The notes: generated by a model from the letters alone, not told the origin. Counted from the first letter of the stretch, positions 11,482 through 34,664 are shown. The stretch: 64,000 nt of DNA from an uncultured Actinomycetes bacterium (GCA_963782465.1 CAWAJR010000007.1:347016-411015); one strand, 5' to 3'. Program-made: numbers and translations.

Positions 11482-11744
11482 AGCAACGCCTTGTCGTGAA
11501 CCCGATCATGTGTGTGGGCCACGGGCTGTGTGCCGAACTGTTCCCCGAGTGGATCCACCTCGACGACTGGGGTTACCCCATCATCGATCCACGTCCTGTC
11601 CCGAAGCACTACGCCGGCCACGCGAAGCGGGCCATCGCGGCGTGCCCGACCCTGGCGCTCATGCTGCGGGAGGAAGCCCCTGCTCCGGCGCCCGCGACAG
11701 CCGCACCGACGCCGCGGCGCTCGCGATCGCGCTCGGGCTCCTAG
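11478..11744 (+). CDS. Small ferredoxin
   Basis: ATG 11478 overlaps the NuoF-like stop (ATGA). NPIMCVGHGLCAELFPE..AIAACPTLAL Cys pattern of single-cluster actinobacterial ferredoxins. Confidence 0.8.
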   Translation: MKQRLVVNPIMCVGHGLCAELFPEWIHLDDWGYPIIDPRPVPKHYAGHAKRAIAACPTLALMLREEAPAPAPATAAPTPRRSRSRSGS

Positions 11745-11754
11745 TCTCTCTCGC

Positions 11755-12420
11755 GTGGCGCGCGTACTGGTCGTCGAGGACGACGACGGGATCGCTGAAC
11801 CGCTCGTGCGCGCGCTCCAGCGCGAGGGCTACGAGACGGCGCGCGCCGCGACCGGAGCCGATGCCACCCGGTTGGTCGACGGCGGGGTCGATCTGGTCGT
11901 TCTCGACCTCGGGCTCCCCGATGCCGACGGTGTCGCGGTGTGCCGCACGATGCGCCGCGCCGACCCGACCCTGCCGATCCTCATGCTCACCGCACGCTCC
12001 GACGAGCTCGACGTCATCGTCGGGCTCGACGCCGGCGCCGACGACTACGTCACCAAGCCGTTCCGGTTGGGTGAGCTCCTCGCCCGGGTGCGGGCGCGCG
12101 TGCGGGGCCGGTCGTCGAGCACGGTGCGGGTGCAAGACCTCGAGATCGACATCGCCGGCCGGCGGGCATGGCTCGCGGGGAAGGAACTGGACCTCACGGT
12201 CAAGGAGTTCGATCTGCTCGCGCTACTGGCGCGTCGGGCCGGCACCGTCGTGACACGCGAGGAGATCATGACCGAGGTGTGGGACGCCCACTGGTTCGGT
12301 TCGACGCGCACCCTCGACGTGCACATCTCGTGGCTGCGCAAGAAGCTCGCGAACGACGCGGCCGCCGGCCGGTACATCTCTACCGTGCGAGGTGTCGGCT
12401 TCCGCCTCGAGACGGCCTGA
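11755..12420 (+). CDS. OmpR/PhoB-family response regulator
   Basis: GTG 11755. Receiver domain VLVVEDDDGIAEPL..DLVVLDLGLPDADG..LMLTAR..KPF. Winged helix LTVKEFDLLALLARRAG..TLDVHISWLRKKL..VRGVGFRL. Confidence 0.92.
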   Translation: MARVLVVEDDDGIAEPLVRALQREGYETARAATGADATRLVDGGVDLVVLDLGLPDADGVAVCRTMRRADPTLPILMLTARSDELDVIVGLDAGADDYVTKPFRLGELLARVRARVRGRSSSTVRVQDLEIDIAGRRAWLAGKELDLTVKEFDLLALLARRAGTVVTREEIMTEVWDAHWFGSTRTLDVHISWLRKKLANDAAAGRYISTVRGVGFRLETA

Positions 12421-12423
12421 CCC

Positions 12424-13698
12424 GTGCGCCGCCGCATCGCCTGGGCAACCGTCACCGTTGCCATTACCGGCATCCTTGTGCTCGGTGTGCCACTCGCCTT
12501 CGTCGGTCGCCAGGTCGTCCGTAACGACGAACTGCGGCGACTCGATCGGGAGGCGTCGTCGATCGCCTTCGCGATCGACGACGACTTCGAGCATGCGAGA
12601 CCGATCGACAGCACGCTCCTCACCGCGCTGGCCGGTACGGACCGTTTCGTGATCGTGCGCGAAGCGAGCGGTCACATCGCATCGGGTGGCGCGCACCTCA
12701 CCGGCCAGACGATCTCGGCGACGGTCCCCGTCGAGCAACACGGCACGATCACGGTGTTCACGAGCGCGAGCGACACGAACCGACGGGTTGCGACCGCGGT
12801 GCTCGTAATCGCAGGCTTGAGCGTCCTCGGCGTGATCGCGGCGATCGGTCTCGCCATGTTCGTCGCGCGGCGGCTCGGTCGGCCGGTCGCCGATCTCGCC
12901 CGCGTCTCGGAGCGCCTCGGGTCGGGCGACTTCTCGGTGCGCGCACCTCGCAGCGGCGTGCCGGAACTCGACGCGGTGGCCGACGCGCTCGACCACTCCG
13001 CCGAACGCATCGACGAACTCGTCCGCAACGAGCGTGAGTTCGCGACGAACGCGTCTCACCAGTTGCGCACGCCGCTCACCGCGTTGCGCCTCCGCCTCGA
13101 GGAACTCGGTCTTTCGCGCGACGATGACGTGCGTCAGGAAGCCGAGGCCGCGCTCGCGCAAACCGATCGACTGGCTTCGACGATCGAAGAACTGCTCGCC
13201 CTGGCGCGTGATCACGCGGGTTCGGTTCGGCACCCCGTCGACGTCGCCGCACTCGTGAAGGAACGCACCGCGTCGTGGCAGGGTACGGCGCGCCGCTCGC
13301 GCCGCGTCGTCGAAGTGCACGCCGACGGCCCGCTCGTCGTGCAGTCGTCGGCGAGCGCGCTGGCGCAAGCGATCGACGCCCTGATCGAGAACTCACTCCG
13401 TCACGGCAAGGGGACCGTGCGGGTGGAGGCGCGCTCCCACTCGCACCACGTCGAGATCACCGTCGAGGACGAAGGTGCAGGGATCCCGCCCAGTTCCGTC
13501 GGCTCGATCTTCGACCGTCACGTCTCGTTGCGCGGCGGCAGCGGTGTGGGCCTCGCTCTCGCGCGTGCACTCGTCGAAGCATCGGGGGGTCGGCTCGATC
13601 TCGTACGACCGCAACCACCGCGCTTCCGGGTCTTGCTGCCTCTGCAAGCCGACGACGAGATCGTCGAGGGCGCGATGCCCACACGCGAAATCTTCTGA
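12424..13698 (+). CDS. Sensor histidine kinase (TM-HAMP-HisKA-HATPase)
   Basis: Two TM helices; H-box EFATNASHQLRTPLTAL; N box LIENSLRHG; G boxes DEGAGIP and GGSGVGLALARAL. Starts 3 nt after the response regulator. Confidence 0.92.
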   Translation: MRRRIAWATVTVAITGILVLGVPLAFVGRQVVRNDELRRLDREASSIAFAIDDDFEHARPIDSTLLTALAGTDRFVIVREASGHIASGGAHLTGQTISATVPVEQHGTITVFTSASDTNRRVATAVLVIAGLSVLGVIAAIGLAMFVARRLGRPVADLARVSERLGSGDFSVRAPRSGVPELDAVADALDHSAERIDELVRNEREFATNASHQLRTPLTALRLRLEELGLSRDDDVRQEAEAALAQTDRLASTIEELLALARDHAGSVRHPVDVAALVKERTASWQGTARRSRRVVEVHADGPLVVQSSASALAQAIDALIENSLRHGKGTVRVEARSHSHHVEITVEDEGAGIPPSSVGSIFDRHVSLRGGSGVGLALARALVEASGGRLDLVRPQPPRFRVLLPLQADDEIVEGAMPTREIF

Positions 13699-13799: not shown

Positions 13800-14216
13800 T
13801 CACCGGTCACCCGTCACCTGGTTCGCCGGTGCCGGCTGGGCGAAGGCGGTCGCGAGCCGGGGAACGGCCTCGACGAGGGACAGGAACGCTCCTTCGGTCG
13901 CGACCCGAACGACGACCGGTCCGTCGGCGGTGACCGTCGACTGGTGCGGGCGATCGGCGAGCACCTCGTGCGCCCCGATCCAGTCGCCCGCCCCGATGGT
14001 GCCGACGGTCGCGTCGCCTTGCGTCACCACGGCGCGACCCCAGAGCAGGAAGAGGACCTGATCGGCCGGGCTCCCCGAGGTTGCCAGCACGCGGCGGGGA
14101 GGCATGTTCAGTTCGAGGGTCAGCGACTCGACCAAAGCGAGCTCTTCAACGGTCAACTCTGCGAACGTTGGTACCGCTCGTAGGGCCCCCACCGGCTTGT
14201 TCCCGTCGATATCCAC
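13800..14216 (-). CDS. Cyclic nucleotide-binding domain protein (stand-alone cNMP-binding beta-barrel)
   Basis: C-terminal 138 aa of ORF 13800..14423. FAELTVEELALVESLT..GSPADQVLFLLWGRAVV..GAGDWIGAHEVL resembles CAP/Crp effector domains. The start at GTG 14216 is inferred; the N-terminal part of the ORF is R-rich. Confidence 0.65.
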   Translation of the reverse strand: MDIDGNKPVGALRAVPTFAELTVEELALVESLTLELNMPPRRVLATSGSPADQVLFLLWGRAVVTQGDATVGTIGAGDWIGAHEVLADRPHQSTVTADGPVVVRVATEGAFLSLVEAVPRLATAFAQPAPANQVTGDR

Positions 14217-14398
14217 TTCGCGCCTGCGCACGCGCCCGCTTTCCCTGCTCCGGTCGATCCGCTGCCCCCCGACCTCCCCGCCATGTGCCGGGGCGATCCT
14301 GCGCCGGCGCGGTTGCAGAAATGTTGCGGGCCGGCACACCCGCCGGGCCGTCGCCTTCGGTGGCCCGGTTTCGCGCCCGCCGCGTACGCTCGCGCGCC

Positions 14399-17300
14399 GT
14401 GGGGTTGGTGTTCCTTGGCCCATTCGAGGTGAACGGCCCGGTCGGGCCGGTTTCGTTCCGTGGCGCGAAGGACCGCCTGCTCCTCGCGCTGCTCGCGGTC
14501 CGGGCGAACGAGGTGGTCGCCACCAGCCGGCTCATCGACGATCTCTGGGCCGAGGACCTGCCCGAGAAGGCCGGCGTCGCGCTGCGCGCCCACGTCGCGC
14601 ACTTGCGCAAGGCGTTGGGCGCCGCCGGGTTCGATGAGATCGTCGTCACCCGAAAGCCGGGTTACATGCTGCGGGCCGACCCGTCGACCATCGACGCGGT
14701 GCAGTTCGAGCGGGGTGTCGCCGAAGCCCGCGGCGCGCTCGCCGCCGGCGACGCGGCGCGGGCTCGCCGGCTGTTCACCGCGGCGCTGGCACGTTGGCAC
14801 GGCGACGCCTTCGCCGACTGCCGCGATGCCGAGACGTTACGGGCCGAGGCGGTTCGCCTCGACCAGTTGCGCCTGGTCACGATCGAGGACCGGATCGAGC
14901 TCGACCTCGCGTTCGGCGACCACGCCGCGCTCGCCGCGGAGGTCGAGGCCCTCCTGGTTCAGTACCCGTTTCGCGAACGTTTGTGGCACGCGTTCGCCCT
15001 GGCGCTGTACCGGGCCGGTCGACCGCACGACGCCCTCGCGGCGCAGCGGCGCGCGATCGAAACCCTCGCCGCGGTCGGTATCGAACCCGGCGGGGACCTG
15101 CGCCGGCTCGAGATCGCGATCCTCGATCGCGACCCGTCGCTCGACCTCGTGCTCCCGCTCCGGCGCCGCCGGGCCGAAGAACGACGCTCGGGTTCTCGGT
15201 TGCTCGCCGCGGTGACGTCGGCCGGCCCGCAGTTCGTCGGGCGCGACGACGAGTACGCGACGGTGATCGGGGCTTGGAAGCGTGCCCGCGACGGTGCCTT
15301 CGAAACGGTGCTGCTGGCCGGCGAACCGGGCATCGGGAAGACCCGGCTTGCCGCCGAGGTCGCGATCGCGGCGCAGGACGACGGCGCCTACGTGTTGCAT
15401 GGCCGTTGCGACGAAGGTTTGGGCGTGCCCTACCAGCCGTTCGTCGAGGCATTACGCGACCACCTCGAAGCGGTCGGCCCCGATGTCGGAGACTCGCTCG
15501 GCGGGTATGCCAGCGAGCTGGTACGTCTCGTTCCCGAGTTGGCCGACCGCCTGCCCGATCTCCCTTCGCCGATGCAATCCGACCCGTCGACCGAGCAGTA
15601 CCGGCTCTTCGACGCGGTGTCGGCGTGGCTCCAAGCGGTATCGCGCGAGGGTCCCGTGATCCTCGTGGTCGACGACCTGCATTGGGCCGCGCCACCGACG
15701 GTCTTGTTGCTGCGTCACCTGATCTGCTCCGAGCGGGCGTTGCACGTGTTGGTCATCGGCACGTACCGAGATTCGGAACTCGGCGACGCACCGGCACTGG
15801 CCGGCGTGCTGGCCGACCTGCGGCGCGCATCCGGTGTCCAACGGTTGCCGCTGCGCGGGCTCGACGAAGCGGCGGTCGTCGCGTTCGTTGAAGCGGCCGC
15901 GGGCCACGACCTCGATGCTGCCGGCGCCGACTTCGCGCGCGCGGTGCACGAGCAGACGGGCGGGAACCCGTTCTTCGTCAACGAGATCGTACGGAACCTG
16001 GCGGAGGTGACCGGCGCACCGAACGCGCTGACGGGCGCGAGCTCCATCCCGGCCGCGGCGCGCGAAGTGGTGATGCGGCGCGTCGAGCGGCTGCCGAGCG
16101 ACGCGAGACAGGTGCTTTCGCTCGGTGCGGTGATCGGCATGGAGTTCGAGGTCGACGTCCTCCAGCACGTGCTCGTCGACCTGCCGACCGATGCGCTGCT
16201 CGGGGCGCTCGAGCGGGCAACGGCGGCACGGTTGATCGACGAGCTCGGCCCGAACCGTTTCGGTTTCGCGCACGCGATCACGCGCGACGCGTTGACCGAC
16301 AGCATGACGGCCAGCCGGCTGCAATGGCTCCACCACCAGGTCGGCATCGCGATCGAGACCGTGCACGCCGCGCAGCTCGGTGAGCACTCGTCCGAACTGG
16401 TCCGCCACTTCGCCGACGCGGCACCGCGCAAGGCGGTGCCGTACGCGATCGCCGCCGCGCGGGCCGCGCTCGAGACCCTCGCGTTCGAGGACGCGATCAA
16501 CCTTGCCCGGCGGGGCATCGCGGCAGCCGAGCAGGCTCGGCTGAGGGGTTCGGCGGTCACGGCCACGGAGGCGTGCGACCTTTGCCTGGTGCTCGGCCAG
16601 GCGGAGCTGCGAGCGGGGTTCCCCGCCGGGCGCGGCACGCTTCTGCGCGCCTACGACATCGCCCGCACGATCGGTGATGCCCGCCGGCAGGCGCACGCCG
16701 CGCTCGCCGTGAACCGCGGCTATTTCGCCCGGATCGGTCAGACCGACGACGAGCTGATCGCGAGTCTGGAAGACGCCATCGCCGCGCAACCTCCCGGCGA
16801 CACGGCGGAGTTGGCCGAACTGCGCGCCGCGCTGGCGTCGGAACTCGTCTGGTCCGACGACGGCGAGCGCCGCTTCGCGCTGAGCGCCGACGCGATCGAC
16901 ACCGCTCGGCGGGTCGGCGACCCGCGCACGCTCGCGCGCGTTCTACTGCGGGCGATCATGACGATCATCGCGCCCGACACGCTCGCGACGCGACGCGCGC
17001 ACTACGAGGAACTCGTGGTGATCGCCGATGAACTCCACGACCCGGCGATCCAGTTCGACGCGGCGTTCGCGCACAGTACGACAGCGTGGGAGTCGGGCGA
17101 CGTCGAGGCATCGAACGAGATGCAGGAGATCGCGACGGCGCTGGCGCAAGAACTTCGCCAACCGCGTCTGGTCTGGCAGGCGAGCTTCATGCGGACGTCA
17201 CGGTTGATCGAGGAGGGAAAACTCGACGAGGCCGAAACGTTGGCGACGGCCACGCTCGACCTGGGGGAGCGCGCCGGCCAGGGCGGTGAGGCATTCATCT

Positions 17301-17911
17301 TCTACACCGAGCAGCTCCTCGAGATCCGCCGCTGGCAGGACCGGCTCCCCGAAGTGGTCGAGATGTTCGGTGACCTCGCCGGCCGTGACGACATCGACTT
17401 CGGCTATTCGCTGATTCGCTACCTCTACGACGCGGGTGAGCACGCCGCGGCCGGCGCGCGGTACCGCGAGGTGCTCCGGCGCGTTGTGCTCCCGCCGCGC
17501 CGCGACATGCTCGCGCTCGCGACGCTCTACAACCTCGGCTACCTCGCAGCCCGTCTCGGTGATCGCGAGCACGCCCCGGCGCTCTACGAAGCGCTGGCGC
17601 CATATGCCGGTTCGTTCACCAACACGACAGTGGCCAAGCCGGTCGCGCACCACGCGCTGGGCATGCTGGCGGCCACGATGGGCGACGCGGCCCGTGCGGT
17701 TGAACACCTCGAATGCGCGACGCGCGTGCACGAGCGAGTCCAGGCCCCGCTCCTGCTCGACGAAACCCGAGTCGAGCATGCGCGCCTACTGCTCGCGACC
17801 GGAGCCTCGCGAGCCGTGGTCGACGGTGTGGTCGAGGCGGTTCGACTCGGGGCCGCGCGGCGCGGTGCGCGTTTTCTGCTCCGCGCGTGCGACGGCCTCG
17901 AGATGGGGTGA
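14399..17911 (+). CDS. AfsR/SARP-family regulator: wHTH + BTAD + P-loop NTPase (NB-ARC/AAA-like) + TPR-like helical repeats
   Basis: LGPFEV..SFRGAKDRLLLALLAVRANEVV..DDLW (OmpR-type wHTH). BTAD domain (DAVQFERGV..RLDQLRLVTIEDRIELDLAFGDH..LVQYPFRERLWHAFALALYRAGR). Walker A LLAGEPGIGKTRLA, Walker B VILVVDDLHWA, and a long helical C-terminus. Start is GTG 14399, TTG 14405 or GTG 14408. Confidence 0.9.
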   Translation: MGLVFLGPFEVNGPVGPVSFRGAKDRLLLALLAVRANEVVATSRLIDDLWAEDLPEKAGVALRAHVAHLRKALGAAGFDEIVVTRKPGYMLRADPSTIDAVQFERGVAEARGALAAGDAARARRLFTAALARWHGDAFADCRDAETLRAEAVRLDQLRLVTIEDRIELDLAFGDHAALAAEVEALLVQYPFRERLWHAFALALYRAGRPHDALAAQRRAIETLAAVGIEPGGDLRRLEIAILDRDPSLDLVLPLRRRRAEERRSGSRLLAAVTSAGPQFVGRDDEYATVIGAWKRARDGAFETVLLAGEPGIGKTRLAAEVAIAAQDDGAYVLHGRCDEGLGVPYQPFVEALRDHLEAVGPDVGDSLGGYASELVRLVPELADRLPDLPSPMQSDPSTEQYRLFDAVSAWLQAVSREGPVILVVDDLHWAAPPTVLLLRHLICSERALHVLVIGTYRDSELGDAPALAGVLADLRRASGVQRLPLRGLDEAAVVAFVEAAAGHDLDAAGADFARAVHEQTGGNPFFVNEIVRNLAEVTGAPNALTGASSIPAAAREVVMRRVERLPSDARQVLSLGAVIGMEFEVDVLQHVLVDLPTDALLGALERATAARLIDELGPNRFGFAHAITRDALTDSMTASRLQWLHHQVGIAIETVHAAQLGEHSSELVRHFADAAPRKAVPYAIAAARAALETLAFEDAINLARRGIAAAEQARLRGSAVTATEACDLCLVLGQAELRAGFPAGRGTLLRAYDIARTIGDARRQAHAALAVNRGYFARIGQTDDELIASLEDAIAAQPPGDTAELAELRAALASELVWSDDGERRFALSADAIDTARRVGDPRTLARVLLRAIMTIIAPDTLATRRAHYEELVVIADELHDPAIQFDAAFAHSTTAWESGDVEASNEMQEIATALAQELRQPRLVWQASFMRTSRLIEEGKLDEAETLATATLDLGERAGQGGEAFIFYTEQLLEIRRWQDRLPEVVEMFGDLAGRDDIDFGYSLIRYLYDAGEHAAAGARYREVLRRVVLPPRRDMLALATLYNLGYLAARLGDREHAPALYEALAPYAGSFTNTTVAKPVAHHALGMLAATMGDAARAVEHLECATRVHERVQAPLLLDETRVEHARLLLATGASRAVVDGVVEAVRLGAARRGARFLLRACDGLEMG

Positions 17912-20192
17912 TTCGTACTCGGGCGGTCGAAGGCCCCACTTCTTCTGCTGGAGGTAGTCGACGCGCCACGGCGGTCGGTTCCCGCGCTCGGCGTCGATCC
18001 ACTGCTGGTACATGCGTTGGGTGACCATCGACGCGAGTTTCGAGAGGGAGCGGCCTTGGAGGTGTGGCGCGACCACGCGTAGGAAGGGGCGGGCGAGGTC
18101 GATCAGCATCCCGACGGGGCCGGCGGGCGGCACGCCGAGCATGTCGGCATTCGTGTTGCCGATCAGTTGCCGCGTCAGGGCGGCGGGATAGTTCTTGGTC
18201 ATCGGCAAGCGCATCTGGCGTTGCATCACGTCGAGGAGGGATGCCATCAGCGTCTGGCCGTCGGCGCTTTCACGCGCGTGGCGCCGGAAGATGGTTTCAC
18301 CGACGAGCCGCAACTCCTCGATGGTGAGCGGTTGCTCGTCGGGAGCGGATGGGCTGCGCCGGAGCAGCGAGTAGTCGATCCCGAGGAGATGCCCGACGGC
18401 GAGCCAGAAGTGCACGTAGTCGTCGCGCGCTTGGGCGTTCGCGGGGCTGTTGGTGACGATGCCGAGGTTGTCGAGCGCATCGAGCACGACGACCGTGAAC
18501 ACAACCAGCGTGCCGACCAGGTCTTCCTGGTTGATCGGGACGCCGTAGCGCTCGACCGACCAAGGGCTTTCGTTGTCGTGGAGGATCATGTGGCGGACCG
18601 CGGCGTGGAAGAGGCGTACCCCCCGCACCGATTGCGCGCCCCGAGTACCCGGCTGGAGCGGCGACGGGTTGTCGGCCATGAGGTCGATGAGCATCTGGCC
18701 GGTTTCGGCGACCCGGCGCGTGGTGTGGCCGGTGGTCAACTCCGCGGTGCAGGTCGAGCACGCGCGCGCCGTCGGCGGCGGTGTAGCTGTACGGCAACGA
18801 TCCGCAGAACAATGCCGACGCGATTTCCAATCCGAAGTCGCAGAGGAAGGTCTTGCCGCCGATCAGCCGGTCGGTGCTCACCCACGCCGGGAGTGCGTCG
18901 TCGGCGCGGAGGCCGTCGTAGTCGTACAACCCGTCGGAGATCATCTCGGAGACGACATCACGCGCGTTGCGTTCCTTGTCGTGGCAGAACGCCTCGACGG
19001 CGCGATCGGCCGCGGGGTCGCCGATCTTGCGCAACGTGCCGAGGTGCGCGTCTTCGAGCGCGAGGTCGACGATGCGCCGGTCGCGTGGCGACGGGCCCTC
19101 GAACATTCCCTGGTCTCGCTGCTCGGCCCGGAACAGGCTGACGACGAAGTTCATTCGTTCCGCGAACCGCGTCCAGTTGTGCGCGCCTCGTCCGGCCCGG
19201 TTGCCGCCGGAACGGTCGAATTCTTCGACGAGTGTTTGTGTGTGTTCGTCTTCGAGGCGCTCGAGGAGCGCAGGGTAGAGCGGTTGCCCGCCCGGTCGGT
19301 CGTCGAGCCCGCGACCGAGGAAGAGCGGTGCGACCGGGCCGCGGATCGGCCCCTCCCACGCGAACACACGACGGGTCATGAACGTCTCGTAGTGCTCGGT
19401 GAGCCAGCGCCACATCGGTGAGCGCTGCCGGAACGCCCACGGCGTGCCGCGGTGTTTGAGCACGACGACGGGTTCGGCGGGATCGTGGGGGTCGGCGTTG
19501 CGAAACTCGACGAGGTGCTTCGCGACCGGGTCGAGCGCGATCTGGATCACCGGCTGCAACCGCCACTGCTCGTACTGTGCGAGCCGCAAGTTGGCTCGAA
19601 GCACGTACTCGGCTTGCCGTTTCGGGTCGGATTCGCAGGCGGCGGCGTAGTAGCAGCGGATCCCTTCGTGCAGCCACGAAATGTCGCCGGCGCAGTACAT
19701 GTCGGAAGGCTCGACGGGCTTGATCTTCGCGAGGAAGGCATCGAACGCCGCGTCGTCGCCATGACCAACCACGGGGGGGTTTGCTTCCAACCAATCGAGG
19801 AACGATGCGATCGCGAACGCGATTTCGTGGAAGACGAGCCGGTTCCCGATCGCGAGCGCGCGTGGCATCGCCGCGTCGCTCAGCAATCTGAGGCTGTGCT
19901 GGAGTCGTGTGAGCGGGCCGGAGAACAGCCGCATCCAGGGCTCGCTCGACACGAGCTGCGCGAAGGCCATGCTCGGTTGGTCGAGCCGGAGGTTCTCGCC
20001 GACCGTGTACGACGACCACCGGCCGAACGTGAACCAGTTGGCATTCCCGCCGGTGCGATTCGCGAGCTGAACCGATAAGTCGGCGTACGCGAACGTGATC
20101 CACTGGTTGCGGTAGCGATCATCGCGGAGCCTGCAGATCGCCTCGACCGCTTCCGTGCGGACCGGGCGCGTCGGGTCGAGCACCCCGCTCAT
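17786..20192 (-). pseudogene. Large two-domain protein: ~400-aa N-terminal domain of unknown family + DUF2236/MpaB-like oxygenase domain; frame broken near 18740-18755
   Basis: ORF 18297..20294 carries the unknown domain (RYRNQWITFAYADLSVQLANRTGGNANWFTFGRWSSYTVGENLR). It also carries the start of the DUF2236 domain (GDPAADRAVEAF..LPAWVSTDRL..GSLPYSYTAADGARVLDL). The domain continues in ORF 17786..18739 (TAELTTGHTTRRVAETGQMLIDLM..VRLFHAAVRHMI). ATG 20192 is preferred over 20294 on codon bias and because a hairpin sits at 20281-20304. Confidence 0.75.
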
Positions 20193-20197
20193 TGCGT

Positions 20198-20234
20198 CTT
20201 CCCCACTTGCCTTCCCCACTTGCTTCCCCACGTG
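20198..20234 (-). repeat. Triple tandem direct repeat (12-13 nt period) in the 5' leader of the 17786..20192 gene
   Basis: Plus strand reads cttccccacttg (20198-20209), c, cttccccacttg (20211-20222), cttccccacgtg (20223-20234). On the coding strand this is CA(C/A)GTGGGGAAG x3, ending 6 nt before ATG 20192. Confidence 0.85.
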
Positions 20235-20280
20235 CCGCTCGCCATCCGACGTTAACACCACGCGAACGGTGGCCCGCTCC

Positions 20281-20304
20281 GAAGAGCGGGCCACCGGGTT
20301 CGTA
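20281..20304 (-). terminator. 10-bp perfect hairpin downstream of the 20345..20941 gene
   Basis: tggcccgctc-cgaa-gagcgggcca, about 40 nt after the stop at 20345 on the minus strand. Confidence 0.55.
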
Positions 20305-20344
20305 GGCCTACCGGCCTGCAGGGTTGTGTGTCTGTGGATTCGAG

Positions 20345-20941
20345 TTACGCGACCGGTGCGGGCATGGCCCCACCGGTGGTCGGTGCGACTGCGTGGGCCT
20401 TCACGTCACGCTCGTGCATCAGGAAGCCGATCACCAACGCGCCCGCCACGCCGATCGCGCCGAGGAGTGCGGCGATGCCGACCCAGTAGGCGATCATCCC
20501 GACGACCGACCAGCCCCACGCGTAGAGCAGGAGCCCACGGAGCGTCTCACCCTTGAACATCGTCGCGACCGTGCCGGCCAGCTTCGTGTCGTTGGGGTTC
20601 GCCTGGGCTTCGGCGCTCAGCTGCGAGTAGGTCTTGCCGCCGCCGATGCCTTCGAGGTGCACGGCGATGAACTGGTTCGCGTAGGCCTTCGCCTTCGGGC
20701 CGCTGTCGACCGTCTGGCCGGCGTACCGCTGCAGGCCGGGGAACTCCTGCGGGCTGAAGTTCGCGGCGCCCTTGGCGGGGAAGACGATCTTCTGCGAGGC
20801 CAACTGGTCGTGGACCATGTTGTCGGCAAAGTTCGAGCCCCACAGCAGCAAGACGCTGCCGACGGCGAGCACGATGAACAGGATCGCTCCGATAATCGCG
20901 AGCGACGGCATTTCCTTCAACCAACTACGAAGTCGCGCCAT
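20345..20941 (-). CDS. Conserved membrane protein (N- and C-terminal TM helices flanking an exported domain)
   Basis: 198-aa product from ATG 20941 (SD ggag 7 nt upstream). LAIIGAILFIVLAVGSVLLLW..LLYAWGWSVVGMIAYWVGIAALLGAIGVAGALVIGF. The longer ORF to 21298 is R/P-rich upstream of this start. Confidence 0.7.
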   Translation of the reverse strand: MARLRSWLKEMPSLAIIGAILFIVLAVGSVLLLWGSNFADNMVHDQLASQKIVFPAKGAANFSPQEFPGLQRYAGQTVDSGPKAKAYANQFIAVHLEGIGGGKTYSQLSAEAQANPNDTKLAGTVATMFKGETLRGLLLYAWGWSVVGMIAYWVGIAALLGAIGVAGALVIGFLMHERDVKAHAVAPTTGGAMPAPVA

Positions 20942-21145
20942 TGTTTCTCCTTGCGCCGATTCTCTTGACGCGATGTGCGTCTTGCGAGTGAGCTCATAAT
21001 CGGCGTTCGGGAAGCTCGACGCGAGTGTCGACGGCCACCTCTCCAGTGCGCGCAAGGCCATGCAAGTTGGGACTGAAGTCCTATCTCGGGCGGGCTCGAC
21101 GTGCCGACAGGCCGGGCCCATTCCGGAGAAAGGGGACAATGCCGG

Positions 21146-21165
21146 GCGACCCTGATGCGGGTCGC
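21146..21165 (-). terminator. Short hairpin immediately after the stop of 21168..21524
   Basis: gcgaccc-tgatgc-gggtcgc (7-bp stem). Confidence 0.35.
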
Positions 21166-21167
21166 GG

Positions 21168-21524
21168 TTAGTTGAGCGCCGGCGCACCCGGGGCGTGGCG
21201 GCGCCCGAAGCGCCGAAGGTTGAAGTAGGCGAAGGCCGACTGCGCGGCCAGCGCGATGACGACGCCGACAAGTACCGGGTGGATCTGGCTCGCAACACCC
21301 AATGCGACGATCACACCGGGCACGAACCACACCCAGAAGTAGCGCAGCCACAGACGCGATGCCTGGAAACGCGCGTACGCGTTGGCGATCGGCGCAAGGT
21401 CGGGTTGCTCGACGCTGCGGCCGAGGCGCACCATCCGCCGCACGCGGAGCCGGTCGGTGCGTTGGAGCTTGCTCCAGGCGCCGAGAAATTCTTCGTCTTC
21501 GGTCGTTCGCTGCATGGCTTGCAT
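21168..21524 (-). CDS. Small membrane protein (hypothetical)
   Basis: 118-aa ORF with two hydrophobic helices (LWLRYFWVWFVPGVIVALGVA; VLVGVVIALAAQSAFAYF) and G/C-ending codons. Confidence 0.6.
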   Translation of the reverse strand: MQAMQRTTEDEEFLGAWSKLQRTDRLRVRRMVRLGRSVEQPDLAPIANAYARFQASRLWLRYFWVWFVPGVIVALGVASQIHPVLVGVVIALAAQSAFAYFNLRRFGRRHAPGAPALN

Positions 21525-21567
21525 GGTGGCATGGACGCGATGCCCGCGGAAGAACGCAGCGCCTGAT

Positions 21568-21605
21568 GTAACAGAGCGGAAACCTCAGCGAGACTTCGGC
21601 GAAAC
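21568..21605 (+). promoter_or_regulatory. GlnR-box-like operator upstream of amt
   Basis: GTAAC-agagcg-GAAAC-ctcagc-GAGAC-ttcggc-GAAAC. The half-sites start at 21568, 21579, 21590 and 21601, an exact 11-nt phasing. It lies 56 nt upstream of the amt start. Confidence 0.6.
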
Positions 21606-21660
21606 CACCGGCTTCTACGTTGCGCTCGGCCTATTCGAGCCAGGCAACGGAGGAACCAAC

Positions 21661-23232
21661 TTGCGATATCGACTCGCCCGGGCAGCGGTGCTGACTGCGG
21701 GCATCAGCGCGATCGTCGCGCTCTCTTCGGGCGTAGCCTGGGCGAGCGCAACGGACGCCGGTGGCACGACAACGAAGGAGCTGACGCACACCGACATCAG
21801 TCTCAACCTGTTGTGGGTCGTCGTCGGTGCAGTACTCGTCATCTTCATGCAGGCGGGCTTCGCGCTCGTCGAAACCGGCTTCTGCCGTGCGAAGCATGCG
21901 GCGCACGTGGTGTCGACGAACTTTGCGATCTTCGGGGTCGGGTTCGTCGCCTACTACTGCGTCGGTTTCGCGTTCATGTTCGGTGGCTTCACCGCGCCGA
22001 TCATGGGTCTCAACAATGCGGTGGGAGGGGCGCACGCCAACCTGATCGGATCGGGGCACTGGGTCTTCCTGTGGAAGGGCGGGTTCTTCCTCCAAGGCCA
22101 CGCGTACGACGTTGCTGCGGCGGCGTTCTTCCTCTACATGGTCGCGTTCATGGACACGACCGCGACCATCCCCACCGGCGCGATGGCCGAACGTTGGAAG
22201 TGGAACTCCTTCGTGCTGTGGGGGCTCTTCTGCGGCGCGATCTACTACCCGCTGTTCGGTGCATGGACCTGGGGTGGCGGTTGGCTGTCGCAGCTCGGCA
22301 ATAGCGCGAGCTGGGGCCACGGGTACGTCGACTTCGCCGGATCCGGTGTGGTGCACATGATGGGTGGTATTGCCGGCCTCGCCGGTGCGCTTGTCCTCGG
22401 GCCTCGCATCGGGAAGTACGGAGCCGACGGCAAACCGCGCACGCTGGCAGGGCACCACATCCCGATGGCCATGCTCGGCACGTTCATCCTGCTGTTCGGC
22501 TGGTTCGGGTTCAACGCAGCCTCGACCTTCGCGGCAACCGACCATCGCTTCGCCCTGGTGGCGGCGAACACCGCGATCGCCGCGGCGTTCGGAGCGGTGT
22601 TCGCGATGCTCTGGGTGCAGTTGCGCACGCCCGACCGCAAGCCCGATCCGGGCATGATGGCCAATGGCATGCTCGCGGGCCTGGTCGCCATCACGGCGCC
22701 CTGTGCCTTCGTGCAGCCGTGGGCGGCGGCGACGATCGGCCTTCTTGCCGGCATCATCGTCGTCGAGTCCGTCTGGTTCATCGAAAAGCGCGGCATCGAC
22801 GACCCGGTCGGCGCCATCTCCGTGCACGGCGTGTGCGGTGCATGGGGCGTGATCGCAGTCGGTCTCTTCGCCGACGGCAGCTACGGCCAAGGCTGGAACG
22901 GCAGCCTCGCCGACAGCAAGTACGGCGTGTCGGGTCTGTTCTACGGGCATGGCGGTGGCGGGCAGTTGCTCTCGCAGCTTGCGGGGGTCGCGACCATCGC
23001 GATTGTGATGGGTGGCATCTCCTACGTGTTCTTCGCCGTCCAGAACAAGCTCACCAAGGGCGGGATCCGTCCGACAGCCGAGGTCGAAATGCAAGGCGTC
23101 GACCTCCCGGAGATGGGCGTGCTTGCGTACCCGTCGTTCTATGGCTCCTCGATCCACGTCGAGATGCCTGACGGCGACGGGATGCACGAGCTCCCGGAAC
23201 CGGTACCGGTGGGGCAAGAACACTCGCGCTGA
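21661..23232 (+). CDS. amt: Ammonium transporter (Amt family)
   Basis: TTG 21661 with SD GGAGG 7 nt upstream. Signal peptide RYRLARAAVLTAGISAIVALSSGVAWA. Amt blocks LLWVVVGAVLVIFMQAGFALVETG, VDFAGSGVVHMMGG, AISVHGVCGAWG. Acidic C-terminal extension. Confidence 0.93.
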   Translation: MRYRLARAAVLTAGISAIVALSSGVAWASATDAGGTTTKELTHTDISLNLLWVVVGAVLVIFMQAGFALVETGFCRAKHAAHVVSTNFAIFGVGFVAYYCVGFAFMFGGFTAPIMGLNNAVGGAHANLIGSGHWVFLWKGGFFLQGHAYDVAAAAFFLYMVAFMDTTATIPTGAMAERWKWNSFVLWGLFCGAIYYPLFGAWTWGGGWLSQLGNSASWGHGYVDFAGSGVVHMMGGIAGLAGALVLGPRIGKYGADGKPRTLAGHHIPMAMLGTFILLFGWFGFNAASTFAATDHRFALVAANTAIAAAFGAVFAMLWVQLRTPDRKPDPGMMANGMLAGLVAITAPCAFVQPWAAATIGLLAGIIVVESVWFIEKRGIDDPVGAISVHGVCGAWGVIAVGLFADGSYGQGWNGSLADSKYGVSGLFYGHGGGGQLLSQLAGVATIAIVMGGISYVFFAVQNKLTKGGIRPTAEVEMQGVDLPEMGVLAYPSFYGSSIHVEMPDGDGMHELPEPVPVGQEHSR

Positions 23233-23250
23233 CCTGAAGTTGCACTCGCC

Positions 23251-23280
23251 AGTGTGGGGACGCGTGAGCGTCCCCACACT
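23251..23280 (+). terminator. 13-bp perfect hairpin between amt and the downstream regulator (terminator or attenuator candidate)
   Basis: agtgtggggacgc-gtga-gcgtccccacact, 19 nt after the amt stop. No U-tract follows. Confidence 0.55.
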
Positions 23281-23294
23281 GCGCGTCGCGGAGA

Positions 23295-23870
23295 GTGGGA
23301 GGGAGCGGCGTGTCGCGCGCGTCCGAGTCGTCGGCGTCGCAGTGGCTCAACGGTGACATCGTCGTGCTGCGGTGGCCGGAACAACAGGCGGAAGCCGTCA
23401 GGCTCGCCGATGAGGAACGTCCGTACCTGCTGCTTGTCGAGCAAGGAGCCGCGCCACCCGACGTCGGTGGCTGCCTCGTCGACTGGGTGCGGTTGCCGGT
23501 CGACGACGCCGACATCCGGGCACGGCTCACCGCGCTCGAACGGCGAGCGGCGCGTCACCCGACGCAACCGACCCTGCATACCGATGGCACACTCATCTTT
23601 CGGGGCCGGCGGGCCTTCCTCTCGCCGTTGCACGCCCGGATCTCGGCGGTGCTCGTCGACGCGTTCGAGAGTGGCGTCGCCGAGAGCGACCTGTTCGGCG
23701 CGGTTTGGCCCGAAGGTGGCAGGCTCGCCAAGATGCGGGTGCACATCTCACGGCTGCGCAAAGACCTGGTCCCGCTCGGTTTGGAGATCACTGCGATACG
23801 CAATTTCGGGTACCGGCTGCACGCCGCCAATCACGTCGACATGCGAACCCCGAGGAGCGGTCCGGAGTAA
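23295..23870 (+). CDS. Winged-helix (OmpR/PhoB-type trans_reg_C) regulator with a short, atypical receiver-like N-terminus
   Basis: C-terminal wHTH FLSPLHARISAVLVDAFESGVAESDLF..MRVHISRLRKDL..IRNFGYRL. The N-terminal ~75 aa resemble a truncated receiver (IVVLRW..PYLLLVEQG..DWVRLPVDDADIRARLTALERR). An alternative start at GTG 23310 has the better SD. Confidence 0.8.
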   Translation: MGGSGVSRASESSASQWLNGDIVVLRWPEQQAEAVRLADEERPYLLLVEQGAAPPDVGGCLVDWVRLPVDDADIRARLTALERRAARHPTQPTLHTDGTLIFRGRRAFLSPLHARISAVLVDAFESGVAESDLFGAVWPEGGRLAKMRVHISRLRKDLVPLGLEITAIRNFGYRLHAANHVDMRTPRSGPE

Positions 23871-26587
23871 TGGATGTCAATCGCATACTGCTCGACATCC
23901 TCGTTGTGTTGCTGGCGGCGAAGGTCGCCGCCGAAGTCGCCGATCGCATCAACGTCCCGGCCGTGGTCGGCGAGATCATCGCCGGGATCATCATCGGCCC
24001 GTCGGTCCTCGGGATCGTGCACACGAGTGAAGCGCTGCAGACGCTCGCGCAGCTCGGCGTCATCCTCCTCCTGCTCGAAGTAGGCATGGAGATGGACCTC
24101 GCCGAGCTCCGGAGCGTCGGCCGGGCCTCGCTCCTGGTCGCGTTCGTCGGCGTTGCGGTACCGATGGTCACCGGCGCGGGCATCGGCCTGGCGTTGAACA
24201 TGACGGGGAAGGAGGCGCTGTTCGTCGGCGCCGCGCTGACGGCGACGAGCGTGGGTATCACCGCGCGGGTCTTCGGCGACCTCCGCGCGCTCGCGACGAT
24301 CGAAGCGAAGACGGTGCTGGGCGCGGCGGTCGCCGACGACGTGCTCGGGCTCGTGATCCTCACGGTCGTGACGCGCATCGTCAGCGAAGGCTCGGTGTCG
24401 GTACTCGGCGTGTTGTGGGTGGTCCTCGTCGCCGTCGGTTTCGTGGTGCTCGCCTCGCTCATCGGCGTGCGGTTGGTGCCGCCGGCGTTCGCCTTGCTGC
24501 GTCGTTACAGCCGTTCCGCCGGCACGTTGGTCGCGGTGGCGCTGGCGTTCACGCTCGCGGTTTCGGAGCTTGCACATGCGGCGCAACTCGCACCGATCGT
24601 CGGCGCATTCGTCGCCGGGCTCGCACTGGGCCGGAGCAGCGCGGCCGACCGGGTCCGCATCGAACTCGCACCGGTCGGGCACCTGTTCATCCCGGTGTTC
24701 TTCCTGGAGATCGGCATCGACGCGCAGGTCCGGCAGTTCGCCCGGCCCGCCGTGCTCTGGATCGCGGCGGTCCTGCTCGTCGTCGCGATCATCGGCAAGC
24801 TCGTGGCCGTCGTCGGCATGGCGGGCTCGCCCGGCGATCGCCTGCTGGTTGGTATCGGGATGATCCCCCGTGGTGAAGTCGGACTGATCTTCGCGACGCT
24901 CGGACTGCGCCAGCACGTGTTCGGGGAGGATGTGTACGCGGCGCTGTTGCTGGTCGTGCTCATCACGACCGTCGGCACGCCGCCCGTGTTGCGCGCGCGC
25001 CTGCTCGCGATGCGCGCGGGCCGGCGCGCCCCCGGCACCACGCCGAGCGCGGTCCCCACCGGTGAGCTCGTCTTTCTCGACCCGGGCGGCTACGTACAAC
25101 TTCACTCCGAGCCGTTGCCGTCCGACGCGCTCCGCACCGCCCTCCAGGCGGCGCGTCTGGCCCGCGAGCACGGAGCCGGCGCAACGCTGCTCGAATGGTT
25201 GGAGGCGTTCCCACCCGGCCCGCGCCGGTTCGACGCCGCGGCTCGCGACGAGTTCTTTCGACTGCTCGCGGAAGGCGGTCCACGATCGTGGCGGCTTCTC
25301 ACGACGTCGGGCGTGCTCCAGCGCGCGCTGCCGGAACTCGACGACGCCATCTCCCACCGGCTCCGCGACCCGTTGCAGATCGACCCGTTGTCGTCATTGC
25401 GCCTCCCTCGGTTGGAAGCCGTCCGTGAGGCTTCGAGCGAGCTCGCGCCGGGCCCGGTGCTCACGAGCGTGCTGCTCGCGTCGCTCGTCCTCGACGCCTG
25501 CGACGACGCGTCGGTGCAGCCCGTGCTCGTGGCGCGCCGCACGGTGCAGCGGCTCGATCTGGGCGCGGCGATCGAACAATCGGTGGCGGGGCTGGTCAGC
25601 GACGGCGAACTCCTCCCGGCCGCATTGCGACGCGTCGACGCGCTCGATGAAGAAGCGGTGCTGCAACTGGCGGTTCACCTGGCGACGACACAACAGGCCG
25701 ACGCGCTCTTCTTCCTCGCGCACGCGACGTTCTCCGGCGACGCGTGGGAACGCGACCGGCTCGACTCCCTGGCCGATCTGGTTCGCGACGCGCTCGCCCA
25801 CCCCGAGCTCGTCGGGCGCGACGCGTCGTACGCCGTCGAACGGCGCAAGCGGGAGGCGATGACCCTCGTTGCGGCGCCTGCCGCGCGGGCACGGATCGAA
25901 GCAGCTCCCCGGGAGTACGTCCTCACACAGACGCCGGCTGATCTGGCGCGCCACGCCCAACTGTGCGAACCGCCACCGCAGCGGTCGGAAGTGCGAGCCG
26001 CGGTCGACAACGTCGACGACGGCTACCGGGTCGAGATCACCGCGCGCGACCGGATCGGTCTGCTGGCTCGCACCGCCTGGGTGCTCCAAGACGCCCGGTG
26101 CTCGGTGCAACAGGCGGCCGCGGTGACGTGGGGCGACGGAACCGCGGTGGCCTCCTTCCGTGTGGAGGCCGCCCGACCTCCGGAGCCGGCCGCGTTGGCC
26201 GTGGCACTCGAGGCCGACCTCGACGCGCCGCTCGTCGCGGCGCCCTTGCCCGATGTGACGCTCGAATTCGACGACAAGGGTTCGCCCTGGCACACGCGGT
26301 GCACCGCGACCGGGCCCGATGTTCCCGGGCTCCTCCGTGGCTTGGCGACCGCGTTCGCGGTTGCGGGGGCCAACGTGCACTCGGCGCGGATCTTGACCGA
26401 GGCAGAAACGGCGCGCGACGTGTTCGACCTCACCGACCGGCGCGGTGCGAAACTCGACGAACACCTCCAGGAACGGATCGTCGAGGTACTGGCCCAAGGG
26501 TTCGAACCACGCCGGCGCCGCTTCGGCCTTCGGCGCCGTGGCGGTGCCGGCCATGCCCAGCCGCACCTTGCCATCGACGGCACCTAG
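23870..26587 (+). CDS. Fusion protein: CPA2 (Kef-type Na_H_Exchanger) cation:proton antiporter domain + GlnD-like C-terminal region (GlnD_UR_UTase helical part, degenerate HD, two ACT domains); no NTase domain
   Basis: ATG 23870 overlaps the upstream stop (TAATG). Residues 1 to ~395 form 12-13 TM helices (LLAAKVAAEVADRINVPAVVGEIIAGIIIGPSVLG..IPRGEVGLIFA). The C-terminal part shows LLTTSGVLQRALPELDDA, LLASLVLDACDD, ACT1 YRVEITARDRIGLLARTAWVL and ACT2 TATGPDVPGLLRGLATAFAVAGANVHSARI. Confidence 0.85.
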   Translation: MDVNRILLDILVVLLAAKVAAEVADRINVPAVVGEIIAGIIIGPSVLGIVHTSEALQTLAQLGVILLLLEVGMEMDLAELRSVGRASLLVAFVGVAVPMVTGAGIGLALNMTGKEALFVGAALTATSVGITARVFGDLRALATIEAKTVLGAAVADDVLGLVILTVVTRIVSEGSVSVLGVLWVVLVAVGFVVLASLIGVRLVPPAFALLRRYSRSAGTLVAVALAFTLAVSELAHAAQLAPIVGAFVAGLALGRSSAADRVRIELAPVGHLFIPVFFLEIGIDAQVRQFARPAVLWIAAVLLVVAIIGKLVAVVGMAGSPGDRLLVGIGMIPRGEVGLIFATLGLRQHVFGEDVYAALLLVVLITTVGTPPVLRARLLAMRAGRRAPGTTPSAVPTGELVFLDPGGYVQLHSEPLPSDALRTALQAARLAREHGAGATLLEWLEAFPPGPRRFDAAARDEFFRLLAEGGPRSWRLLTTSGVLQRALPELDDAISHRLRDPLQIDPLSSLRLPRLEAVREASSELAPGPVLTSVLLASLVLDACDDASVQPVLVARRTVQRLDLGAAIEQSVAGLVSDGELLPAALRRVDALDEEAVLQLAVHLATTQQADALFFLAHATFSGDAWERDRLDSLADLVRDALAHPELVGRDASYAVERRKREAMTLVAAPAARARIEAAPREYVLTQTPADLARHAQLCEPPPQRSEVRAAVDNVDDGYRVEITARDRIGLLARTAWVLQDARCSVQQAAAVTWGDGTAVASFRVEAARPPEPAALAVALEADLDAPLVAAPLPDVTLEFDDKGSPWHTRCTATGPDVPGLLRGLATAFAVAGANVHSARILTEAETARDVFDLTDRRGAKLDEHLQERIVEVLAQGFEPRRRRFGLRRRGGAGHAQPHLAIDGT

Positions 26588-26860: not shown

Positions 26861-26992
26861 TGGTCGTGGGCCTCGCCGTCAGCAATGACGATGTCCGCAC
26901 ATTTCCACGGAAACCTATGCAGCGTGCGTTGCGGGACCGAGTCCAGTCGGTGACGATGCCGCGTCGCGAATGTTTCCACCGCATTTCACGTG

Positions 26993-32505: not shown

Positions 32506-34664
32506 TTGAAGACCGCTCGGTTCTTGTTCCGGTTCACCGCAATCGTGGTGATTGGCGCGCTCGCGCTCGGTGGTTGCTTCGCGCTCATCGCCCCCGCCGC
32601 GCGCCAGGTGATCTTCGGTACGACGGCGTACGGATCGATCCTGCCCAAGCTCAGCCGCCCGGCCGAGCGCTCGATCGTCTACGACACGTACGGCAACCCG
32701 ATCGACACGCTCTACGACCAGGACCGCGAGTCGATCGCGTTCAAGGACATACCGAAAACGCTGATCGACGCGGTGCTCTCCATCGAGGACCACGGCTTCT
32801 ACCAGCACGGCGGTGTCGACGCGAAGGCGACGATGCGCGCCCTCATCGAGAACGTCGGCTCCGGTCACGTGCAGCAGGGTGGCTCGACCATCACCCAGCA
32901 GCTGGTGAAGAACACCCTCATCAAGCACCCCAAGCGCGACCTGCAGCGCAAGATCCAGGAAGCGTTCCTCGCGACGCGGCTCGAGAAGGAGCTGACGAAG
33001 AACCAGATCCTCGGGCGCTACCTCAACGTGATCTACCTGGGTGACGGTGCCTACGGGGTGCGTTCCGCGGCGGAGCGCTACTTCGGCGTCGAGCCGAAGA
33101 AGCTCACGCTGGCCGACTGCGCCATGATCGCCGGGCTGATCCAGTCGCCGGAAGAACTCAACCCGATCACCCACCCGCGCGCGGCCCGGATCCGGCGCGC
33201 GACCGTCCTCGACGAGATGGTGAAGTACGGGAAGATCACGGAAGGTGCGGCGGCGTTCGCGAAGCGGCAACCGTTGCCGACCAAGACGCACAACAACAAC
33301 CCGACCGGCAACCCCGACAACGGTTACTACCTGTCGTGGGTGATCAACCATGTGCTCCTGCAGGACGACCCGACGGTGAAAGGCGACGTCGGTGAAGTGC
33401 TGAAGGACGCCTACGACTCGCCGTACAACGCGGTCTTCCAGGGTGGGCTGAAGATCTACACGACCTTCGACCCGTTCATGCAGAACCGCGCCCTCCAGGC
33501 GGTGCGAAGCAATCTGCCGGAGTCCGACTTCGCCGCCGCCATGATCGCGATGGACAACTCGAACGGCGCCGTCGTCGCAATGGTCGGCGGCCCGAACTTC
33601 GACACCGCGAAGTTCAACCTTGCGACGCAAGGGCTGCGCCAGACCGGTTCGACTTTCAAGGCGATCACGCTGGCGACGGCGCTCGAAGCCGGGTACTCGC
33701 CGAACGACATCGTCAACGGCACCCCGCCGTTCGTCTACCCGATCCCCGGCAGTGCGCCCCTCGACATGCGTAGCGACTGCGGCGGCCCCGAGACGCTCAC
33801 CGCCGCCATCGCCCGGTCCGACAACTGCGCGTTCACCCGAACGCTCGTCTCGCTCGGCGCGGCAACGGTGGCTCCGACGGCGCGAAGCGAGTGATCGCGA
33901 TGGCCGGTCGCTTGGGGATCAGCACGAGCACCCTCTACCCGTCGCCGACGTTGACGCTCGGTACGGGAGCGACGTCGGTGTTGCAGATGGTCGGCGCGTA
34001 CTCCGTGTTCCCGAACAACGGCATCCGCCGCCCGCCGATGTTCGTGACCAAGGTCGTCGCGCCCGACGGCAAGGTGCTGTTCCAAGACCCGGGTTCCGGC
34101 ACACCGGTGCTGAGCCCGCAGGTCGCCGAAACGGAAACCCAGATGCTGCGAGGCGTCATCACCGGCGGTACGGGTACGCGGGCGAACATCGGTCGCCCGG
34201 CGGCCGGCAAGACCGGCACCACGACCAACAGCACCGACGCATGGTTCATCGGGTTCACCCCCCAGTACACCGCCGGTTTCTGGATGGGCAACCCGCTGAA
34301 GGAAGCGGCTTCACCGGTACTCGGCGGCATTTTCGGCGGGCAATATCCCGCCGAGATGTGGCACGACTTCATGTCGTCGGCGGTCAGCAACCTGCCCGCG
34401 CTCGACTTCACGCACCCCAACGCGAGCCAGTTCCCGTCCGTGCAGTACATCGACGAGCACGGCCGGAGCCTGCACTTCGTGCTCCCGACAACGACGACGA
34501 CGGCACCGCCGGTCACCACGCCGACGACCGCACCCGCGAAGAAGAAGCCGAACCAGTCGCCGGGCACCACGACGCCGACGACCAAGCCGCCGGCCACGAC
34601 GCCGACCACGAAGAAGCCGCCGAGCACCACCGCTCCCGGCGGCGGCACAGGTGGAGGGCCGTGA
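32506..34664 (+). pseudogene. Class A penicillin-binding protein (PBP1A-type transglycosylase/transpeptidase); frame broken near 33852-33866
   Basis: ORF 32506..33894 has the TM anchor, GT51 motifs EDHGFYQHGGVD and GGSTITQQLVKN, SxxK (GSTFK) and SxN (SDNCAF). ORF 33891..34664 continues with GNGGSDGAKRVIAMAGRLGI (read upstream of its annotated start), KTG (AGKTGTT) and a Pro/Thr-rich tail. Confidence 0.9.

Follow-up and report, generated by a model that had tools for sequence, protein, structure and literature searches.

Nitrogen control in the Actinomycetota is known mainly from the Actinomycetes, with the regulator GlnR, and from Corynebacterium, with AmtR. As regards promoters with tandem repeats, the pho boxes of Escherichia coli PhoB stand in place of the −35 element, and about 10 bp separate them from the −10 hexamer. 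The GlnR box is built of a-sites (gTnAc) and b-sites (GaAAC) with 6-nt spacers between them, and of its four sites no more than three are required (PMC10235972). In the activation complex on the amtB promoter of Mycobacterium tuberculosis four GlnR protomers are bound head to tail on a1-b1-a2-b2, with a2 at the −35 element beside sigma region 4 and b2 downstream of this element (PMC10235972). The recognition helix of GlnR has been reported to be identical among Actinomycetes, and GlnRII is listed as a GlnR target (Table 1, PMC10704036). Furthermore, MtrA is described as a competitor of GlnR on nitrogen genes (PMC9151340).

The DNA analysed here, in the following called the window, is a stretch of 64,000 nucleotides with a G+C content of about 69 % from an Acidimicrobiia-type genome, that is from a deep class of the Actinomycetota. 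The closest relatives of its ammonium transporter Amt (60–82 % identity) belong nearly all to Acidimicrobiia/Acidimicrobiales MAGs and to Aquihabitans. Upstream of the amt gene lie four phased half-sites which, as predicted from the sequence, very probably constitute the operator of an activator-dependent promoter. With equally high confidence the site is regarded as a putative operator of the GlnR type joined to an amt promoter that lacks a −35 element, conserved throughout the class and forming part of a nitrogen regulon. The best explanation as a whole, in which operator, activation mechanism, nitrogen regulon and a wHTH protein as reader would belong together, is given a probability of about 0.8. 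The promoter region comprises the following features:

21168..21524, minus strand: divergent gene of 118 aa, sharing a 136-nt intergenic region with the boxes
21568..21572, plus strand: box 1 (a1-like), GTAAC, the weakest of the four boxes in conservation
21579..21583, plus strand: box 2 (b1-like), GAAAC, nearly invariant in the 12-sequence alignment A1
21590..21594, plus strand: box 3 (a2-like), GAGAC, with G..AC conserved in alignment A1
21601..21605, plus strand: box 4 (b2-like), GAAAC, the best-conserved box
21616..21621, plus strand: TACGTT, resembling a −10 hexamer (TAnnnT type) and separated from box 4 by 10 nt
21649..21653, plus strand: GGAGG, the Shine-Dalgarno sequence, with 7 nt between it and the TTG start
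21661..23232, plus strand: amt, ammonium transporter of 523 aa with a signal-peptide-like N-terminus (Pfam Ammonium_transp, E=1.8e-100)

The initial annotation had read GTAAC, GAAAC, GAGAC and GAAAC at 21568, 21579, 21590 and 21601 in 11-nt phase, and the plus strand from 21568 to 21605 reads exactly so, the spacers being agagcg, ctcagc and ttcggc. The GGAGG and the TTG reported downstream are likewise present, at 21649–21653 and 21661. The 11-nt phase of the four 5-nt boxes places them all on the same face of the helix. The distance from box 4 to the start codon is 55 nt, and TTG at 21661 is supported as the true start since ATG, GTG and TTG codons of the orthologues align in one column.

The arrangement occurs a single time in the window. 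With both strands counted, the 64 kb contain four G..AC motifs in 11-nt phase a single time; pairs of G..AC occur 51 times. The pattern GNNAC-n6-GAAAC-n6-GNNAC-n6-GAAAC, searched with up to two mismatches, matches only the site at 21568, there without any mismatch, and 0.03 matches are expected from 100 dinucleotide shuffles. A background frequency in shuffled sequence, named beforehand as an argument against the motif, was thus not found. Scored with a 44-nt matrix which was refined iteratively on 81 amt upstream regions, the site reaches 33.1 bits, the next best position in the window 17.6 bits and shuffled windows 7.5–22.5 bits. This matrix gave no further box sites above chance level in the window; weak matches at 26968–26990 (minus strand) and 28018 (plus strand) are inside the range of shuffled sequence.

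A site was found with the same matrix in 76 of the 81 amt upstream regions. Two-fold cross-validation and an independent feature outside the matrix served as guards against circularity. Matrices trained on half of the loci, without the window, still place the site at the same coordinate (27.6 and 28.8 bits), and 62–82 % of the held-out upstream regions score above the 99th percentile of control segments. In alignment A1 (12 sequences), which covers the stretches upstream of amt in the 11 loci most closely related, conservation is strongest in boxes 2–4 (GAAAC-n6-G..AC-n6-GAAAC), which contain invariant columns. By information content boxes 2 and 4 rank first and box 3 next, while box 1 is low. 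Box 4 appears in matrix columns 36–40 as G 0.97, A 0.75, A 0.79, A 0.97 and C/T, and box 3 prefers GA.AC across the Acidimicrobiia. Box 2 is GTTCAC or GTAAC in more distant loci, where its last two positions still show A at 0.97 and C at 0.83. Conservation of box 1 is poor (columns 3–7: G 0.80, all others at most 0.61), and three boxes instead of four may therefore be functional.

The product of the divergent 118-aa gene has no match in Pfam or NCBIfam. Homologues exist in 11 loci and are divergent from amt in the closest relatives. Since the gene is conserved in this orientation, its promoter may feel the same operator.

A sigma-70 −35/−10 consensus pair was not found in a scan of 21400–23400. 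The hexamer TAnnnT, which is not part of the 44-nt matrix and was scored independently, lies exactly 10 nt 3′ of box 4 in 64 of the 70 sites of at least 18 bits. We infer that TACGTT is the −10 element and that transcription starts near 21628; with such a start the boxes are centred near −58, −47, −36 and −25, box 3 falling on the −35 position, and a 5′ UTR of about 33 nt bearing the GGAGG would result. In the proposed mechanism the boxes would be occupied by head-to-tail protomers of a winged-helix protein of the OmpR/PhoB family, the third protomer on the −35 position and the last one between the −35 and −10 positions. The bound protomers would then recruit and stabilise RNA polymerase, as in the GlnR structure on the mycobacterial amtB promoter. 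Two other explanations of the region were rejected. An ECF-sigma promoter with GAAAC as −35 and CGTT as −10 has the wrong spacing; box 4 and box 3 are 10 and 21 nt away from TACGTT, and neither distance fits a spacer of 16–18 nt. A riboswitch or leader RNA was ruled out by an Rfam scan of 20500–24500, which gave no match at E≤1.

The locus has much in common with the GlnR-dependent amtB promoters of Streptomyces, Mycobacterium, Amycolatopsis and Saccharopolyspora. These share the order a1-b1-a2-b2, the 6-nt spacers, the better conservation of b- than of a-sites and one dispensable site. Furthermore, with TACGTT as the −10 element the proximal site would fall between −35 and −10 and its neighbour on a poor −35, and the targets are amt, glnK and glnA. 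Three characteristics of a GlnR box, namely four 5-nt sites in 11-nt phase, b more conserved than a, and a location upstream of nitrogen-assimilation genes, are present. That three of the four half-sites match the GlnR consensus fully, as claimed earlier, agrees with the published definition (PMC10235972), and the sole departure is an A for T at position 2 of a2. However, there are differences: the weak site here is a1 and the dispensable site of GlnR is a2, box 3 of the Acidimicrobiia prefers GA.AC and not GT.AC, and the regulon includes a CPA-ACT transporter as well as a short wHTH protein. In addition, the host belongs to the Acidimicrobiia, and in the sampled 1.08 Mb no GlnR orthologue was found. 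The site would work like a GlnR box, but its assignment to the GlnR system is provisional, since the candidate regulator examined lacks defining properties of a GlnR protein. Most likely, the site is a GlnR-type operator in a class in which none has been described, and would be read by a variant regulator.

With the PhoB pho-box promoters of E. coli (class II-like) the site shares the 11-bp direct repeats and, in the predicted promoter, their place instead of a −35 element and about 10 bp ahead of the −10 hexamer as well as the tandem head-to-tail binding mode. In contrast to these, it has a different half-site, four sites instead of two and a nitrogen instead of a phosphate regulon, and the candidate regulator is not phosphorylatable.

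The module of boxes and hexamer is not restricted to amt promoters. Apart from those in the amt upstream regions, another 28 sites scoring 18 bits or more were found in the 80 amt-anchored loci. They are exclusively on the coding strand, TAnnnT accompanies nearly all of them, and they precede genes for CPA-ACT proteins (about 900 aa), short wHTH proteins, AmtB-type transporters and P-II. In related loci the module thus stands before glnK (P-II) and other amt genes. A site of 27.9 bits is located upstream of a glutamine synthetase gene in locus L082, which was reached via a distant wHTH homologue and in which the wHTH gene follows glnE. Since the module precedes amt paralogues and the genes for P-II, glutamine synthetase, CPA-ACT and wHTH proteins, it marks a nitrogen regulon. 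Within the window no nitrogen genes were found besides the amt-wHTH-CPA/ACT locus. The earlier proposal that amt is under GlnR-type control by the OmpR family probably holds, as it is supported by the conservation of boxes 2–4, the fixed TAnnnT and the module at glnK, amt and glutamine synthetase genes.

Downstream of amt the locus continues with:

23253..23280, plus strand: perfect 12-bp GC-rich hairpin (GTGTGGGGACGC gtga GCGTCCCCACAC) between amt and the wHTH gene, with no T-tract
23295..23870, plus strand: short wHTH protein of the OmpR/PhoB family, 191 aa long (186 aa if translation begins at the GTG at 23310), in which half of a receiver domain is present
23870..26587, plus strand: Na_H_Exchanger (CPA) protein of 905 aa with two C-terminal ACT domains

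The amt product scores 339 bits with the NCBIfam model amt and 301 bits with that of the marine subtype, and its gene has no adjacent glnK. The hairpin is likely a terminator, an attenuator or an mRNA-stability element. Comparably strong hairpins at the same place in four related loci (L004, L005, L006 and L085), conserved in structure and not in sequence, suggest attenuation or transcript stabilisation which would uncouple amt from the level of the regulator. The start of the CPA-ACT gene overlaps the stop codon of the wHTH gene (TAATG), so that both are translationally coupled. In about 16 related loci a GlnR-like box promoter of its own precedes the CPA-ACT gene, whose product thus resembles a cation/proton antiporter under nitrogen control, equipped with amino-acid-sensing domains; a role in the handling of ammonium or K+ is a guess.

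The short wHTH protein reaches 23.4 bits with Pfam Trans_reg_C, below the cut-off of 26.2 bits, and the domain is precomputed for 43 of its 44 homologues. As is the rule in the OmpR/PhoB family, a Trans_reg_C winged helix stands behind a receiver α5 linker. The PDB alignments extend from about residue 100 of the receiver through the winged helix to the end, and Foldseek gives a probability of 1.00 for many OmpR/PhoB regulators. The 44 relatives retrieved by word-index search all have 169–191 aa. An exhaustive search gave 216 clusters with E≤1e-30, a number that rises to 1109 with E≤1e-10, nearly all of 160–220 aa; the short form is thus the norm in at least 216 clusters (counted at 50 % identity, members of about 180 aa) and therefore no truncation artefact. 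The AF2 model (pLDDT 87.3) shows β(23–27)-α(31–39)-β(44–48)-β(62–66)-α(71–86) followed by the DNA-binding domain. In an alignment with the GlnR proteins of Mtb and Sae this N-terminal part corresponds to β3-α3-β4-β5-α5; the first ~42 residues of GlnR (β1-α1-β2) have no counterpart, and α4 is missing in the model. The position of the phospho-Asp is occupied by the nearly invariant Arg26, and the protein therefore cannot work by Asp phosphorylation. A literature search for truncated-receiver OmpR regulators linked to ammonium transport yielded nothing relevant.

The genomic context connects this family with nitrogen genes. Homologues adjoin amt, up- or downstream, in 22 of the 80 amt-anchored loci, and 34 of 70 wHTH-anchored metagenome loci, many of them only 1–2 kb long, hold amt, P-II, glnE or CPA-ACT. 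Typical orders are amt-wHTH-CPA/ACT and glnE-wHTH...glnA-glnA. A box with TAnnnT lies directly upstream of the wHTH gene in 16 of 62 loci, compared with 7 of 918 control positions. In a number of such promoters (L114, L116, L123, L126–L128, L133, L138–L141, L143, L144, L152 and L154) box 4 ends about 27 nt before the conserved DVxxxRWP codon, so that the wHTH mRNAs concerned probably have no leader or hardly any. Four nitrogen loci (L013, L037, L049 and L050) contain two to three paralogous short wHTH copies each with diverged recognition helices; the order in L013 is box-wHTH, amt, wHTH, box-amtB-glnK, box. In the window the wHTH gene has no box promoter of its own and is separated from amt by the strong hairpin. 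It would be expressed by read-through past the hairpin or, in other genomes, from its own box promoter, which would result in autoregulation.

The wHTH protein was rejected as a GlnR orthologue because of its profile scores, its fold rank and its differing helix. A PDB profile search yielded NsrR with 64.6 bits, VanR with 45.1, RpaA with 39.1 and GlnR with 26.5 (8hig) and 19 (8hih), and among the Foldseek matches of the model GlnR takes rank 36. The recognition helix of GlnR is RTVDVHVRRLRAKL and that of the window protein AKMRVHISRLRKDL, without R188, T189, D191 and R195; in the wHTH family it follows the pattern K-[LVM]-R-V-H-[IV]-S-R-L-R-K. The family-generic DNA-contact residues W179, H193, R196, R198, R213, N214 and Y217 are kept; R188, T189, R195, R171 and K153 of GlnR are not. 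Thus, three properties of the GlnR family are absent: a full receiver of ~120 aa with an Asp pocket, the identical helix, and GlnR as the closest characterised relative. A Streptomyces GlnR sequence, which matches the PDB GlnR chains at E=1e-90, served only as the triage query for GlnR candidates, and for the comparison of residues the sequences of real PDB GlnR chains were used.

In common with GlnR (PDB 8HIH, 8HIG and 4O1H) the protein has an OmpR-type winged helix, no adjacent histidine kinase, a probably phosphorylation-independent mode of action and a functional link to nitrogen genes. It is unlike GlnR in the lack of β1-α1-β2 and α4 and in the invariant Arg at the phospho-Asp position. 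GlnRII of Streptomyces coelicolor, located beside glnII, is another OmpR-type regulator encoded in a nitrogen locus, which binds the same promoters as GlnR. However, GlnRII is a full-length GlnR paralogue, whereas the wHTH family is truncated and without specific GlnR kinship.

Concerning the protein that reads the boxes, the half-receiver wHTH encoded in the locus (23295–23870) is the most likely one, with odds judged slightly better than even. Its linkage pattern is that expected of a cognate autoregulated regulator and would also be compatible with a mere target. The rather doubtful alternative is that a canonical full-length GlnR encoded elsewhere reads the boxes and that the short wHTH protein only serves as one of its targets or as an accessory or competing factor, in the manner of GlnRII/NnaR in Streptomyces. 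Motif, a/b hierarchy, 11-nt phase and position relative to the −10 element match the GlnR model closely; the wHTH recognition helix is unlike that of GlnR, yet the DNA motif is GlnR-like, which fits a GlnR elsewhere at least as well, and the wHTH genes behind a box fit equally well as its targets. However, a GlnR orthologue was not found in the 64-kb window and 156 related loci (1.08 Mb sampled), and six-frame translations of these contain no GlnR-type helix with up to 4 substitutions in 16 residues. The full-length OmpR regulators near amt are of the ordinary two-component type, closest to MtrA, RegX3 and PrrA. GlnR candidates near amt in loci L071 and L042 turned out to be RegX3-like and PrrA-like, and the response regulator at 11512–12420 was rejected as a GlnR, since its partner is a DraK-type kinase and its nearest relatives are MtrA, PrrA and RegX3. 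The product of 14081–17911 was likewise dismissed as a GlnR, being SARP/AfsR-like. Furthermore, a literature search on GlnR in Acidimicrobiia gave nothing relevant, and the wHTH gene is tied to nitrogen genes in several gene orders, as is typical of a cognate regulator. The initial annotation had left the choice between the downstream wHTH protein and a GlnR encoded elsewhere, which was apt in so far as the former is linked to nitrogen genes and often has a box in its own promoter; a GlnR orthologue it is not.

It is improbable that the boxes are bound by another phosphorylatable OmpR-family regulator, MtrA- or PhoP-like or the DraR-like protein at 11512–12420, acting mainly as a repressor or competitor. 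Such binding would parallel the MtrA and PhoP sites which overlap GlnR boxes in Streptomyces, half-sites such as G..AC, GTTCAC and GAAAC are common in the OmpR family, and a DraR/DraK-like pair is encoded 8 kb upstream in the window. The GTTCAC of box 2 in distant loci also resembles the consensus of the PHO box. On the other hand, the constant association with a promoter that lacks a −35, with TAnnnT at 10 nt in 64/70 sites, points to the operator of an activator and not of a repressor, the regulon is purely nitrogen-related, and these regulators show no conserved linkage to amt, those nearby differing between loci. Still far less probable is a chance arrangement of repeats without regulatory role. 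Box 1 is indeed not conserved and 5-nt half-sites are individually common, but only 0.03 matches are expected, and dozens of orthologous promoters have the site at the same position together with an independently scored −10 hexamer. Covariation of helix and box 2, namely of wHTH clade A (K-x-R-V-H-I-S-R-L-R) with GAAAC and of clade B (A-L-D-V-H-V-x-R-L-R) with GTTCAC, was not used as evidence because the two clades are also phylogenetically separate.

Starting from the wHTH protein as reader, a broader scheme is proposed tentatively and at somewhat less than even odds. The Acidimicrobiia would do without a classical GlnR, and the short half-receiver OmpR-like family would act as master nitrogen regulator, four protomers activating −35-less promoters. 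The targets would be amt, glnK, glnA, the CPA-ACT transporter and the gene of the regulator itself, and the remnant domain would sense the nitrogen status, for example by binding of P-II or of a metabolite, and not by phosphorylation. The locus itself indicates that the GlnR-type promoter architecture, including a putative activator site between −35 and −10, extends to the abundant and poorly cultured Acidimicrobiia, and the wHTH protein is a concrete candidate regulator whose input domain is minimal and would act without phosphorylation. Should it indeed read the boxes, it would demonstrate to what extent an OmpR/PhoB regulator can shrink and still build an activation complex of four protomers. 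The box matrix also allows nitrogen regulons to be predicted straight from metagenome-assembled genomes.

Elsewhere in the window the response regulator at 11512–12420 (plus strand) has an N-terminal extension of 80 aa and is followed at 12424–13698 (plus strand) by a histidine kinase with a DraK_HK_N sensor domain, and both form the DraR/DraK-like two-component system (11512–13698) located 8 kb upstream of amt. A SARP/AfsR-like regulator of 1276 aa with Trans_reg_C, BTAD, AAA_16 and TPR domains is encoded at 14081–17911 (plus strand). The region 18740–20345 has a lower G+C content (0.65–0.67), a GC skew of 0.10 and no ORF passing the GC3 filter; the long ORFs 18297–20294 and 20345–21298, both on the minus strand, have no Pfam match. 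The genes for a class A penicillin-binding protein (32506–34664, plus strand) and a P-type cation ATPase (52294–54950, minus strand) each appear split into two overlapping ORFs, possibly as a result of frameshifts or assembly errors.
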